Of a DNA stretch of 64,000 nucleotides, positions 957 through 5,711 are shown in pieces; the first letter of the stretch is position 1; each line of letters begins with the position of its first letter. The notes below the pieces were generated by a model. It worked only from the letters and a program-made list of their open reading frames with translations. It was not told where the DNA came from and did not search any database. The position numbers and the translations under genes are program-made. Source of the DNA: Escherichia phage Ec_MI-02; sequence record OP856590.1; one strand, 5' to 3'.

Positions 957-1143
957 TATCTAAAATGTTGAAGTTAAAAGATACAGCCCAGTCAGTGCAG
1001 ACCGTAACCTTTTTAATACAATTATCTTCAACCTCTAGCGGTTCAAACCAATATTCAATAATTTCTTTATGCCCAATATCATCTTTTACTTCGCATTCAA
1101 AATGCTGACTCATCATAACATTTTTAAATTCATCAAAAGTCAT
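880..1143 (-). CDS. Hypothetical small acidic protein (T4 46.2 position)
   Basis: 87-aa ORF between gene 47 and gene 46; start overlaps gene 47 stop. Confidence 0.5.
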   Translation of the reverse strand: MTFDEFKNVMMSQHFECEVKDDIGHKEIIEYWFEPLEVEDNCIKKVTVCTDWAVSFNFNILDNDTPKSLQDMAVSCIKDAYCEVFDI

Positions 1144-2159
1144 TGTGTTGCCTCTACATATAACTGATTTGCATATTGAATAAGTGCTTCGCGATCAGAA
1201 TCAGTGATGTCTGGAATTGCATTAATGTATTCTTCCATCAACGTCTGAAGAGATTGAACTTCAACTTCTTCACTATCATCTGACTCGACAGAGTTATCAA
1301 TCTTTGACACAACTCGTAATGAATGCACAACTTTTTCTAGTTCAGATTCGAACTTCGTTAGATTTTTGTCTACTTCAGTTACTATAACACGTACTGATAG
1401 ATTTGTAAAATCTTTATAGTCAATTTTTCCTTTAAATGGATAATGAATTCTACGATGCCAGGTAGTGTTGTTTGGAATAAATTCCATTCGTTCTGTTTCT
1501 GTATCAAACATCCAGAACCCACGAGGGTCATTCTCGTCACCTGCAGTTAGTGTCCATGGTGTCCCAATATATCTGACGTTAGCAGCCTCAGAAATAGTAT
1601 GGAAGTGACCAGACCACACCTCTTTATAAGTCTTAAGGAAATCAGGTTCAAGACCGTGAGATTTCATTCCTTTATAAAAATAAAATCCATTCAGCTCCCA
1701 GTGACCAACACAAAAAGAAGCAGATGAAGTTTTGATGTGTTCAAGAATTTCACCAGTATTTTCTTCACACATCCAAGGAATTAAATCAATCAAACATCCG
1801 TCAAAATCTACTGTAGTAGGCTTATCATATACTTTAACATTAGGGTATTTAGCCAAAAGCTCAGTAGAAGCATTTGGATGCATTACATTTTTGTAGTGGA
1901 GATCGTGATTTCCTACAATAGTATGTAATGTGATTCCAGCGTCATCAAGCATTTGAACTATTTCACGAGCAAACTCCATAGTTTTATGTGTGATTGCTTT
2001 TCGCACATCAAAAATATCACCATATTGAATCCATACAGTAATTCCATTTTTCTTAGAATATTCTATCGCTTGCTTAATTCCATCAATTTGAATACCGCGA
2101 ATCCACTCATCATCAGCTTTAACGCCTAAATGCCAATCACCCAAGTTTAGTATTTTCAT
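1140..2159 (-). CDS. 47: Recombination endonuclease subunit gp47 (Mre11/SbcD-like nuclease)
   Basis: 339 aa, ATG start; phosphoesterase motifs GDWHLG, GDIFD, GNHD, GHFH; same length as T4 gp47; adjacent to gene 46. Confidence 0.95.
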   Translation of the reverse strand: MKILNLGDWHLGVKADDEWIRGIQIDGIKQAIEYSKKNGITVWIQYGDIFDVRKAITHKTMEFAREIVQMLDDAGITLHTIVGNHDLHYKNVMHPNASTELLAKYPNVKVYDKPTTVDFDGCLIDLIPWMCEENTGEILEHIKTSSASFCVGHWELNGFYFYKGMKSHGLEPDFLKTYKEVWSGHFHTISEAANVRYIGTPWTLTAGDENDPRGFWMFDTETERMEFIPNNTTWHRRIHYPFKGKIDYKDFTNLSVRVIVTEVDKNLTKFESELEKVVHSLRVVSKIDNSVESDDSEEVEVQSLQTLMEEYINAIPDITDSDREALIQYANQLYVEATQ

Positions 2160-2760
2160 GGTGTCTTTTCCATCCCAATTTAGCTGCTTTTGAAACTAGT
2201 TCTTTAATTTTTCCTTTTGTCCATTCAGGACCAGGAGGTTCATGACATAACATTTGCTTAACTCCGTTATTATACCATTTTTTACCTTTATTATGTGATG
2301 AAGCTTTAAATTTATTTGACCTTCCTTTTACATAACCTTCTGGAATATAAGGTAAAAAGGCAGATTTTCCTGTTAATGGATCATGTGAATGTATATTTCC
2401 TTTACAATTATGAGAACCATATAATGGATGATTTTGTCCTTTATTATCTCTTCCAAATGAACCTTTTGGAGCAGCATATGACATATTAAAGAATAATGGA
2501 TTTTTAACTGCATCGTGCAATCGTTGATAATATAACTCGCATTTAATAGCTTCTTCACGCGTATCAAATTCAGCTAAAATGCATGAATCAAATAAATGAG
2601 GATTATCTGAAAGCTCTTTATTATAAATTTTCTTATACTTTTTAGATAAAACTGACCCATGATATCCAGCTAAATGCCTATCTAAAGATGTAGATCCAAT
2701 ATAAAAAGGAGGAAGTTTATCTCCACTATATATGGTTAAATAAGTTATATATTTTTTCAT
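2137..2760 (-). mobile_element. Free-standing GIY-YIG homing endonuclease (Seg-like)
   Basis: 207 aa; N-terminal YLTIYSGDKLPPFYIGSTS...R...E motif typical of GIY-YIG; C-terminal basic repeats NHPLYGSHNCKGN / NKGKKWYNNG resembling I-TevI/Seg DNA-binding modules; inserted between a-gt and 47. Confidence 0.7.
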
Positions 2761-2920
2761 ATATCAAGAACCGTCATTGAAATGCAAAATAAAATTATTG
2801 AAATAAATCCATCTGGAGTGCTAAAGAACCCAATCCAACATGCTCTAGTGAATAGATAAAATGCAAGAAAAAGTATCACATATCCAAGAAATATCATTAT
2901 ATCAAACTCCGTATAAAGCT

Positions 2921-2939
2921 AAAGGGCCGAAGCCCTTTA
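2921..2939 (-). terminator. UUCG-tetraloop stem-loop at the a-gt 3' end (possible terminator or RNA-stability hairpin)
   Basis: AAAGGGC-UUCG-GCCCUUU on the minus-strand transcript, overlapping the a-gt stop; no clean U-tract. Confidence 0.4.
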
Positions 2940-4139
2940 TTTTGTAATAATGTCAAACTGTTCTTTAAAGCAGAAGCTTGAATCTTGATGTTGATACAAA
3001 AATTCATACGCTTTTTCTCGCTCACGGTCATAAAGAGCTCGGTCAGATGACAGTTCTTTAATACGCTCGAATGTTGATTCCATATCATTTTCATCAAACC
3101 AAACGATACCGCTATCATGCGAAATTAGCGGAGTATTATCAACACGGAATTTTAAATTTTCGCCAGTAGATTTCCAAAATACCGGAATTGTTCCACATGC
3201 ACCAAGCTCGAGATGAGTATATTCTAAAGAACGTTGTAGATATTTTTTATCCAACTTACTCAACTGATAACCAAATCCGGATTTACTCATACGTTCAAGC
3301 ATTTCGCTATTTACATAACGGTCAAGAATTTGCGTTGGCAAATTAGGAGCAATTTTAATTTGGTCTACTTGATGAAGACGATAATATTCGTATGGAATTC
3401 CTTTTTCTTTAATAGGAATGAACGCAGGAGAACGTTCCAGACCTTCCATAATAGTACTTAGCCCAGCAGGTTTAAGATGTTTTTCGTGAAAATCAAACAT
3501 CTGATAAAAACCTTTCCATGTAGTCGTACGACCAATCCAACGGTTGACATTCATATTAATTTCAGAAACATCTTTCCAGTATGTTGATCGAACCTTCGCA
3601 ATATCCATAGGAGGCTGAAAGTTGTATACAGTCGGTGCTTCTTCAATATCATCAAACAGAGAAACTGTTTCTGGATACCATTCTTTCATCAAAACTTTAT
3701 TAAAATCGCCATTATCAGAATGGCTAAAAATAACATCAGCTCGACGAACAGTTTCTTCTAATCCCAAATTTCGGCGCAAAGAAAGAGAAGAATGGTCATG
3801 TTGATAAACTACAACACGAACCGAAGGTTTAATGTTATCAATAATTTTTTTATAGTTATTAATAGTGTCTTCTTCGACTGAAGTAGCAGGAACTGAATTG
3901 ATAATTAGAATATCACAATCATTTACCAGCTTAAGTGTTTTATCGTATTCTTTTGCCAATAAAACCGGAATTGAAAATGATTTATAATCATGCGCGCAAT
4001 TACGGGTAAATGATTTATCTTTAGCATAAACCAAAGTTACTTCATGACCATTTTTAATAAACCAATCACGTTGCTCGAGAGAAAATTTAGTTACGCCGCA
4101 ACCTTCAAGACCTCGAGCCATAAAAATGCATACTTTCAT
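2937..4139 (-). CDS. a-gt: DNA alpha-glucosyltransferase
   Basis: 400 aa, ATG start; sequence MKVCIFMARGLEGCGVTKFSLEQRDWFIKNGHEVTLVYAKDK...FDIITK matches T4 alpha-glucosyltransferase as I recall it; correct length and position. Confidence 0.95.
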   Translation of the reverse strand: MKVCIFMARGLEGCGVTKFSLEQRDWFIKNGHEVTLVYAKDKSFTRNCAHDYKSFSIPVLLAKEYDKTLKLVNDCDILIINSVPATSVEEDTINNYKKIIDNIKPSVRVVVYQHDHSSLSLRRNLGLEETVRRADVIFSHSDNGDFNKVLMKEWYPETVSLFDDIEEAPTVYNFQPPMDIAKVRSTYWKDVSEINMNVNRWIGRTTTWKGFYQMFDFHEKHLKPAGLSTIMEGLERSPAFIPIKEKGIPYEYYRLHQVDQIKIAPNLPTQILDRYVNSEMLERMSKSGFGYQLSKLDKKYLQRSLEYTHLELGACGTIPVFWKSTGENLKFRVDNTPLISHDSGIVWFDENDMESTFERIKELSSDRALYDREREKAYEFLYQHQDSSFCFKEQFDIITK

Positions 4140-4185
4140 TTAATATCCTCATTGTTTTGGTTTATTTTACCAAAAATTTATAAAG

Positions 4186-4205
4186 CAATATAGGAGCCGA
4201 AGCTC
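4186..4205 (-). terminator. UUCG-tetraloop stem-loop
   Basis: Perfect inverted repeat AGGAGC-(CGAA/UUCG)-GCUCCU immediately after the stop of the 4206..4379 ORF. Confidence 0.4.
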
Positions 4206-4379
4206 CTATCCGCATAATACACCATACAGAGGCTCATTAGAGCTTCTAAATTTTATACGCTTATATGTTATAGTTCCTTCTGCTTTAGCTTTATCATGAG
4301 ACTCTTTAAAGCGTCTCATCATTTCTACTTTAGAGGAACGAATTTTATTATAATCTATTTCAGAAGTCTGGGTGTTCAT
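4206..4379 (-). CDS. Hypothetical small basic protein (57 aa; below ORF-track cutoff)
   Basis: Manual translation MNTQTSEIDYNKIRSSKVEMMRRFKESHDKAKAEGTITYKRIKFRSSNEPLYGVLCG; stop sits in the UUCG hairpin; fills the gap upstream of a-gt. Confidence 0.35.
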   Translation of the reverse strand: MNTQTSEIDYNKIRSSKVEMMRRFKESHDKAKAEGTITYKRIKFRSSNEPLYGVLCG

Positions 4380-4873: not shown

Positions 4874-5092
4874 TTATTTCTCTAATATAAAATAAAAATC
4901 ATCATCTGTTAAATGATACCGATAGTTTAATTCTACACCATTAGATTTAAAAGCGGTATCATACGGATTTTCTGGATCAATATCAATGTCAAGAGCTAAA
5001 ACTTCCCTGAGATACATTTTAAGTAAATAGGGAATAGCTTCAACTTCAGGTATTTCTTCCAAGAATCCGGAGAGGTTAATCGTTAGCCTCAT
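4874..5092 (-). CDS. Hypothetical acidic protein
   Basis: 72-aa ORF, ATG start, overlaps gene 55 stop by 17 nt. Confidence 0.5.
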
Positions 5093-5633
5093 ATAAAAAA
5101 TCCAAACTAGGAGAATCGTCTACAACACTTTTCTTTTCAGCCCCCGGTGTTCTATAGGTTGATTCTTCGTAATGCGTCATTTTATCGTAGATGTCTTGAA
5201 TAAAAGTTTCATCCACTAACGCAACCATATCGTCGTCACGACTGTCATAGACATTGTGAACGAAGTAACTGTATTTCTTTGCAACTTCCTTACGTTCTTT
5301 TTTAATACGTTGGACGAATGCATTAAAACAAGCTTGAGTTATATATGCATGTGGGTTTTTATATTTCGTTTCATCAAAATTATGAAGCCCCTTAATAGAA
5401 GCTTCTATACCATCTGCAATCATTTCTTGTTTCCAAGATTGGGTGTATCCTGAAAAGTTGAAACGTTTAGATAAGCCTTCTGCAATAAGCATAATGGCTA
5501 ATCCGATAGTATCATTCTGACGAACTACTTTATTTGGGTCTTTATTATTTGCTAATTCTGTTTTCCAATCAATAATAGCTTGTAAAAGCTCTTTATTGTT
5601 TACGTAATTATATTTAGGCTTAGTTTCTGACAT
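5076..5633 (-). CDS. 55: Late-transcription sigma factor gp55
   Basis: ORF track starts at GTG 5639; ATG at 5633 gives 185 aa [35 protein letters not shown]..., matching T4 gp55 length and sequence as recalled. Confidence 0.95.
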
Positions 5634-5711
5634 TTTCACCTCTTAGCTCAATTCATAGATCTATTATATCATAATATTTGAAGATCTATCTTAAAGCATA
5701 GAGGATATCAG

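Follow-up and report, generated by a model that had tools for sequence, protein, structure and literature searches.

Free-standing Seg and Mob endonucleases shape the survival of alleles during co-infection by T-even phages, a process known as marker exclusion. Cleavage by Seg enzymes usually produces 3′ overhangs of 2 nt. Among the Seg proteins of phage T4, SegE is a free-standing GIY-YIG homing endonuclease encoded between inh and uvsW, which targets uvsW and for which both cleavage and homing have been demonstrated. SegG and SegF are encoded by promoter-less seg cassettes, are known for marker exclusion of genes 32 and 56, and cut well inside their target genes, away from the insertion site (PMC2988022). 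I-TevI is the intron-encoded GIY-YIG homing endonuclease of the T4 td intron. The table of homing endonucleases in the T4 review lists none at the junction of genes 47.1 and 47 and none for the gp46/gp47 region (PMC2988022), and a survey of T4-related genomes merely counted seg-like genes per genome. Our full-text literature search found no name, description or test of an endonuclease at 47.1/47. Here, we describe an open reading frame (ORF) encoding 207 amino acids at this junction in a 64,000-nucleotide stretch of Escherichia phage Ec_MI-02 (OP856590.1), hereafter the window, which is a segment of a Tequatrovirus (T4-like) genome. The ORF probably encodes, with a probability of roughly 0.8, a T-even Seg-family homing endonuclease of the free-standing (“intronless”) type, directed against the 47.1/47 junction in phages lacking the ORF. 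It is an uncharacterised member of a well-known class, and an expected type of element in an expected place.

The ORF is on the minus strand, like all the genes listed in Table 1, and is initiated by ATG; its coding status is backed by homologues and by the ratio of nonsynonymous to synonymous substitution rates (dN/dS). An earlier interpretation of this DNA, made from the letters alone (the sequence-only reading), had correctly recognized the 207-residue ORF at 2137-2760, the strings YLTIYSGDKLPPFYIGSTS (residues 7-25) and GKKWYNNG (residues 159-166) in its product, and its overlap with the start of gene 47, in which 23 nt are shared. It had also expected no seg gene at this junction in T4, and the T4 genome (NC_000866) indeed has no gene at the 47.1/47 junction and no orthologue there. 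The upstream side had been misread. The ORF does not adjoin a-gt because the small gene 47.1 intervenes, and the UUCG hairpin, taken for the separator of a-gt and the ORF, lies between a-gt and 47.1, in the same place as in T4.

The alignment of the junction with T4 revealed an exact 601-bp insert in the window, flanked by intact genes 47.1 and 47 that are collinear with those of T4; the DNA of gene 47.1 is identical in the T4 copy. The ORF is free-standing, residing between conserved genes and outside any intron or intein. The TGA of gene 47.1 overlaps the ATG of the ORF within ATGA, and the same ATGA couples 47.1 to gene 47 in T4. The ORF has taken over this start-stop junction and uses a translation start context that belongs to gene 47 in T4. 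At its other end, the TGA stop of the ORF falls within the GGT-GAT codons of gene 47. Two copies of the heptanucleotide ATGAAAA, one at the start of the ORF and the other at the start of gene 47, bracket the insert.

The database search with the ORF product returned 170 homologues, and an alignment of 39 sequences represents the ORF family in the comparisons below. Invariant or nearly invariant residues of this alignment are Y7, T9, Y11, G13, Y20-I21-G22-S23, Y33, G35, S39, R68, E75, and N92. Aligning the ORF family with T4 SegA-G by hhalign gave a probability of 97.6% (E 4.7e-12 over 90 columns), with the YIG, GY.GS, E and N motifs kept in both alignments. The Seg-type G-Y-x-G-S motif is present as GYHGS at residues 32-36, of which Y33 and G35 are invariant in the ORF family. 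When compared with individual T4 proteins, the family profile matched SegE (3.7e-10), SegG (2e-5), SegC (1e-4) and SegD (3e-3), and none of I-TevI, I-TevII, EndoII and the HNH protein MobB, the last of which scored a non-significant E of 15.

The AlphaFold2 model based on the 39-sequence alignment has a mean predicted local distance difference test (pLDDT) score of 83.6, with values of at least 90 over residues 1-100, where the topology is β-β-α-α-β-α. It shows the GIY-YIG α/β fold, a three-stranded sheet flanked by helices. The top three matches among the structures of the PDB found by Foldseek are chains of the I-TevI catalytic domain, with probabilities of 0.98-1.0 and target template-modelling (TM) scores of 0.54-0.60, and the best structural matches of the model are exclusively GIY-YIG nucleases. 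Together with the profile comparison and the SegE-like tail, this bears out the earlier assignment: the ORF product is a Seg-like GIY-YIG endonuclease whose nearest T4 relative is SegE. PHROG 10820, which matches the ORF at E 1e-94, carries the label “HNH endonuclease”. No HNH Pfam match at E ≤1 and no HNH motif were found in the protein, and the label, also found in many RefSeq and pharokka-style records (e.g., NC_054916, NC_054911), is a propagated misannotation. Other GenBank records label the ORF “putative homing endonuclease”, and NCBIfam holds no relevant model.

The C-terminal region resembles that of SegE and presumably binds DNA. The hmmsearch alignment to SegE extends into it through W.NNG...P[DE]G[FW].KG[RK], and the local alignment of the C-terminal halves of the ORF product and SegE reached a score of 64, a value attained by none of 500 shuffles. 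In the model, this region forms two β-hairpins and a helix. Basic C-terminal repeats had been claimed from the sequence; the C-terminal half is basic, but repeats are unsupported by the sequence, and GKKWYNNG is present once. An internal repeat was rejected, as the score of residues 101-152 against residues 153-207 was reached by 360 of 500 shuffles. Weaker features that do occur twice are the P-E-x-[YW]-x-K-G-[RK] motif (residues 140-147 and 178-184) and the β-hairpin of the model. No Pfam match to NUMOD3 (PF07460) was obtained for the ORF protein; the domain is present in 18 of the 39 relatives, which share only the N-terminal domain. Residues 195-207 have pLDDT values below 50 and form a disordered tail, and the start of gene 47 lies inside the stretch encoding it.

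Compared with SegE, the ORF product is of nearly the same length (207 against 205 residues), and the alignment covers both the nuclease domain and the C-terminal motif. Both genes are intergenic cassettes, each directly adjoining the start of a conserved gene of DNA metabolism. They differ in their sites, 47.1/47 in the case of the ORF, and presumably also in their targets; SegE has its own upstream promoter (PMC2988022), whereas none is detectable for the ORF, and we infer for the ORF product the cleavage and homing that were demonstrated for SegE. SegG and SegF share with it the Seg-type GIY-YIG domain, which in SegG has the same PP.YYIGS start (E 2e-5), as well as the promoter-less insertion into an existing operon beside an essential replication or recombination gene. 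The ORF product is predicted to perform the same kind of intronless homing with localized marker exclusion. Unlike the distant cuts of SegG and SegF (PMC2988022), the only candidate footprint of the ORF lies within 18 nt of its insertion point. The relation to I-TevI is structural only. The ORF is not intron-encoded, and I-TevI gave an hhalign probability of 8.9%, restricted to a NUMOD3-like stretch, with no significant profile match of the nuclease domain. Moreover, no zinc-finger or helix-turn-helix match was found in the ORF, and R27 of I-TevI has no conserved counterpart in the ORF family.

Paralogues of the same clade reside upstream of another gene. Dhakavirus Bp7 gp108 and its counterpart in Klebsiella phage Roth04 have an N-terminal nuclease domain (residues ~1-115) that is 52-67% identical to that of the ORF product, and their genes also lie directly upstream of a conserved DNA-metabolism gene, overlapping its start (Bp7 locus 1504-2184; Roth04 locus 1441-2190). 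However, NUMOD3 repeats replace the C-terminal region in these paralogues, and the neighbor is topoisomerase gene 39 instead of gene 47. The shared nuclease domain combined with different tails points to a swap of DNA-binding modules, through which the Bp7 and Roth04 paralogues may have been redirected to gene 39.

The insert is optional among T4-like phages, roughly one in eight of which has it. We found it in 68 of the 521 phage records matching the region, at 96-100% nucleotide identity, and the junction between the 3′ end of the ORF and gene 47 in 73 of 573 records. The encoded protein is at least 99% identical in 50 phage records and 95-99% identical in 17 more. The empty junction, in which 47.1 abuts gene 47, is found in T4, T6, RB14, RB51, T2, and some 430 further records. 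Even a single species, Tequatrovirus teqdroes, is polymorphic in this respect, as FriedrichMiescher carries the ORF and teqdroes itself does not. Bas39 is another ORF-carrying phage. Such sporadic presence and absence at one fixed site is a hallmark of homing-endonuclease genes. A pattern scan of IMG/VR for further junctions yielded six loci only, all of them empty and of the T4 type.

Orthologues also directly precede gene 47 in Gelderlandvirus SEA1, Jiaodavirus KP185, Roskildevirus FBB1, Winklervirus LC53, Dhakavirus QL01, Mosigvirus AV109, and the Aeromonas Biquartavirus L9-6. The description as a “lineage-specific mobile insertion” is therefore apt with respect to an optional insert, present in about 68 of about 520 Tequatrovirus records, and too narrow with respect to the lineage, given orthologues in seven more genera. 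These have about 50-78% amino-acid identity and usually overlap the start of gene 47 (by 14-23 nt in SEA1, KP185, FBB1, QL01, and L9-6). Their upstream neighbors vary, with a-gt and 47.1 present or absent; what the insertions of all eight genera have in common is their anchor, the 5′ end of gene 47. Gene 47 is the predicted target gene of the endonuclease. Genera with carriers also have ORF-less members, such as Mosigvirus ST0 and Dhakavirus JS10. Pairwise dN/dS between the window copy and the orthologues of other genera is 0.10-0.25, with synonymous sites near saturation, and judging from these comparisons the protein is under purifying selection. In one carrier, GEP001, codon 183 is a nonsense codon. 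An apparent internal deletion in KNP1 and KNP5 (NC_055713.1) was rejected as a sign of decay, the “deletion” being a run of N at an assembly gap.

The two Mosigvirus phages also differ in gene 47. In ST0, its first 57 nt are identical to T4, T4-type codons 3-6 included (locus 2503-2560), and the carrier AV109 has a far more divergent gene 47 start. This contrast may reflect recombination between genera at the gene 47 locus.

Carriers and non-carriers of the ORF differ at the insertion point. Gene 47 begins with ATG AAA ATA CTA AAC TTG in ORF carriers and with ATG AAA ATT TTA AAT TTA in T4, T6, SfPhi01, the six IMG/VR contigs, and ORF-less Mosigvirus ST0, which amounts to four synonymous changes within 10 bp. 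We compared the flanks of the junction, 900 nt on the upstream and 1000 nt on the downstream side, in an alignment of four ORF-carrying loci, nine ORF-lacking loci, and two “empty variant” loci, in which an empty junction is followed by the carrier-type gene 47 start. Within these 1.9 kb of flanks, containing 264 polymorphic columns, the only fixed differences between carriers and non-carriers are nucleotides 9, 15, and 18 of gene 47. Nucleotide 10 differs too, but ORF-lacking RB14 has the carrier allele. The site of RB14 (locus 1530-1547) is empty with this one of the four changes, TTA to CTA, and represents a natural intermediate allele.

The association between the ORF and the gene 47 start was tested with chimeric queries against the whole phage collection. 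A query joining the 3′ end of the ORF to the T4-type gene 47 start retrieved 69 full-length matches, 68 of which had exactly the four mismatches of the variant. The empty junction followed by the variant start was matched perfectly in eight records (SHFML-26 twice, UGKSEcP1, PBM-1, EPIMAM01, Ec_YwIITB1, BCPEco_001, and BCPSen_003) and with one mismatch in UGKSEcP2; RB14 is intermediate, and about 428 records are of the T4 type. About 9 records thus have an empty site that retains the variant. The empty-variant loci of SHFML-26 and UGKSEcP2 have different downstream haplotypes, and a deletion between the two ATGAAAA copies would give exactly their junction. The putative target region differs between carriers and empty alleles, as is typical of homing endonucleases, and on the strength of these alignments we propose the four changes as an immunity footprint at the target of the endonuclease.

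The insert appears to lack its own expression signals. Near the ORF there is no T4 late promoter (TATAAATA) and no excess of sigma-70-like sites, and the insert has no terminator of its own. As for RNA structure hiding the ORF start, nothing beyond the UUCG hairpin exceeds shuffled sequences (z -0.15). Without its own promoter, late promoter or terminator, the ORF has the appearance of a promoter-less cassette within the transcription unit a-gt / 47.1 / 47 / 46, and segC, segF, and segG have been described as such cassettes in T4 (PMC2988022).

During mixed infection, the enzyme would cut the genomes of ORF-less relatives within the A/T tract ATGAAAATTTTAAATTTAGG, at the 47.1/47 junction or close to it. 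The break would then be repaired by recombination with the ORF-carrying genome as the template, and the repair would copy the ORF together with its immediate flank into the recipient. Carriers would protect themselves in that the insert splits the site and the four synonymous changes in codons 3-6 of gene 47 alter it. The empty-variant records and the nonsense allele of GEP001 may be viewed as stages of the homing cycle.

Several observations weigh against such an endonuclease acting at the junction. For one, its catalytic activity, cut position and homing are properties we infer. The Pfam GIY-YIG model (PF01541) matches residues 4-84 of the ORF product with 21.4 bits (E 3e-4), marginally below the gathering threshold of 22.6 bits, and 14 of the 39 homologues at E ≤0.01 (best 2.4e-5), a marginal outcome consistent with a divergent subfamily. 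A sequence search of the PDB with either the single protein or the 39-sequence profile produced no meaningful match. As the Pfam score is below the threshold, the fold assignment rests on the profile and structure comparisons, and the uninformative search against solved structures made the fold comparison necessary. According to the alignment, the catalytic set departs from the textbook one: the Arg following the YIG motif in I-TevI (R27) corresponds to R28 of the ORF, which is K or N in many relatives. R68 is conserved in more than 90% of the 39 homologues, and the alignment of T4 SegA-G likewise has no invariant Arg, its invariants being Y30, S33, and G34. Furthermore, the divergence of the endonuclease gene between genera is of the same order as that of gene 47, which fits long residence with repeated loss equally well as active spread; in three genera, the endonuclease gene shows a slightly smaller share of synonymous differences, which we do not use as support. 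Since the cuts of known Seg enzymes are often located hundreds of bp away from the respective gene (PMC2988022), that of the ORF product may also lie away from the junction. Lastly, ERS-1 (PP337211.1) is the only perfect match to the ORF joined to a T4-type gene 47 start. It is an UNVERIFIED_ORG record in which homopolymer indels of one base are scattered over the upstream flank, the ORF, and gene 47, and which may be a consensus of mixed phages. We regard it as unreliable but possible counter-evidence, which, if genuine, would mean that the four changes are not required for self-immunity. A decayed ORF beside a sensitive site was rejected as an explanation for ERS-1, because the indels are all homopolymer errors and also occur in gene 47 and the flank.

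Among the alternatives, an active Seg endonuclease that cuts elsewhere, be it deeper in gene 47, within gene 46 or a-gt, or at some remote locus, is unlikely. The four silent changes would then be a short co-conversion tract from donor DNA and not an immunity footprint. Such action at a distance has precedents, as the cuts of the characterized free-standing T4 endonucleases lie at distances of hundreds to thousands of bp from the genes encoding them (PMC2988022) and SegB acts on loci tens of kb distant (PMC13096335), and the combination of the ORF with a T4-type gene 47 start in ERS-1 would be in line with it. However, without any other fixed difference in the 900 nt upstream and 1000 nt downstream, a cut site in this range would have no immunity polymorphism, and a co-conversion tract would usually bring more than 10 bp of donor markers. 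That the insertion keeps to the start of gene 47 in each of the eight genera, irrespective of the upstream genes, also speaks for the junction.

We consider it very unlikely that the ORF is a decaying or domesticated relic, that is, a Seg-derived gene that no longer homes and whose four silent changes are an old footprint. Such a relic could be retained if translation initiation of gene 47 now relied on the 3′ end of the ORF, or if the protein had acquired a new role, for instance in regulation through DNA binding or in the exclusion of competitor phages. The overlap with the start of gene 47, which tolerates only precise deletion, would favor retention, but precise loss does occur, as the roughly nine empty-variant records indicate, so that retention is not enforced. 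The similar amino-acid divergence of the endonuclease and gene 47 across genera is compatible with long co-residence, and the canonical Arg, variable in the ORF family, and the truncated allele of GEP001 could likewise be signs of decay. The carriers within Tequatrovirus, with ORFs 96-100% identical and one downstream haplotype shared by the four sequenced carrier loci, could even represent one clonal lineage. On the other hand, dN/dS of 0.10-0.25 across the whole protein, nuclease motifs included, and the invariance of E75, N92, Y20, and G22 argue for a working nuclease, and sporadic presence and absence within a species and in several genera is typical of active gain and loss. That the ORF is no nuclease gene at all, having arisen by chance or encoding some small basic protein of unrelated origin in which the GIY...YIG-like string is fortuitous, could be argued from the sub-threshold Pfam match, the lack of a sequence match in the PDB, and the lack of an NCBIfam model. 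The structure match, with a high-confidence model and none but GIY-YIG nucleases as its best counterparts, the 97.6% profile match to the T4 Seg proteins, and the purifying selection seen in dN/dS effectively exclude it, and the 170 homologues also speak against it.

The features of the locus are collected in Table 1. Two further presence/absence differences were observed in its neighborhood. The window is without mobB, the HNH homing-endonuclease gene sited in T4 between a-gt and a-gt.2; in its place is a 66-nt spacer (4140-4205) between a-gt and an a-gt.2-like ORF (4206-4379), with a UUCG hairpin at 4190-4209. This is the second presence/absence difference of a homing-endonuclease gene less than 2 kb from the ORF at 47.1/47. 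On the other side of gene 47, T6 and SHFML-26 have an additional ORF of about 855 nt directly after 46.1 (T6 locus 3023-3119; SHFML-26 locus 2993-3073), whereas in T4 and the window 46.1 runs straight into gene 46 without it. Annotated as “homing endonuclease” in SHFML-26, it is a further optional element of the 46-47 cluster.

Table 1. Features of the 47.1/47 junction and its surroundings (window coordinates)
Feature	Position	Strand	Remarks
gene 55	5076-5639	-	
small a-gt.x ORFs	between gene 55 and a-gt	-	
a-gt	2937-4139	-	Pfam AGT, E 5e-236
UUCG-tetraloop hairpin	2920-2939	-	between a-gt and 47.1; conserved in T4, outside the insert
gene 47.1	2757..2897	-	46 amino acids; predicted membrane protein; PHROG 6693, E 1.5e-31
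free-standing homing-endonuclease ORF (predicted)	2137..2760	-	ATG start; 207 amino acids; isoelectric point (pI) 9.6; 601-bp insert relative to T4
direct repeat ATGAAAA (7 bp), upstream copy	2754..2760	-	start of the ORF
direct repeat ATGAAAA (7 bp), second copy	2153-2159	-	start of gene 47
Seg-type GIY-YIG nuclease domain	2461..2760	-	residues 1-100; TIY 9-11, YIG 20-22, GYHGS 32-36, R68, E75, N92
basic C-terminal region, putatively DNA-binding	2191..2409	-	residues ~118-190; pI 10.0; resembles the SegE C-terminus
motif PEGYVKGR	2320-2343	-	in the C-terminal region
motif GKKWYNNG	2263-2286	-	in the C-terminal region
motif PEWTKGK	2209-2229	-	in the C-terminal region
overlap of the ORF and gene 47	2137..2159	-	23 nt, out of frame; ORF tail HENTKLG-stop over the first codons of gene 47
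four synonymous substitutions, gene 47 codons 3-6	2142..2151	-	at 2151, 2150, 2145, and 2142; proposed immunity footprint
gene 47	1140..2159	-	SbcD/Mre11-like recombination nuclease subunit; SbcD-like metallophosphoesterase
46.2, then 46.1, then start of gene 46	after gene 47; gene 46 GTG at 696	-	

It is tempting to regard the orthologues as one endonuclease lineage that is locked in position, having remained at the start of gene 47 in at least eight genera of Straboviridae while diverging roughly in step with it, and whose sisters were retargeted to gene 39, even though we rate this distinctly unlikely. If true, the lineage would be more than a passing parasite and might be a long-term partner of the gp46/47 locus that may bias its inheritance or tune the translation of gp47 through the 23-nt overlap, and a non-canonical catalytic set would be possible, with R68 in place of the post-YIG Arg. 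The assignment to the GIY-YIG class itself corrects a widespread misannotation as “HNH endonuclease”. The natural alleles, comprising about 430 putatively sensitive records, about 68 carriers, about 9 empty variants, and the intermediate RB14, define a testable 20-bp candidate recognition site. As a homing endonuclease directed at the 47.1/47 junction, the ORF product would skew which alleles of the gp46/gp47 recombination-nuclease region, a core locus of these phages, are passed on.

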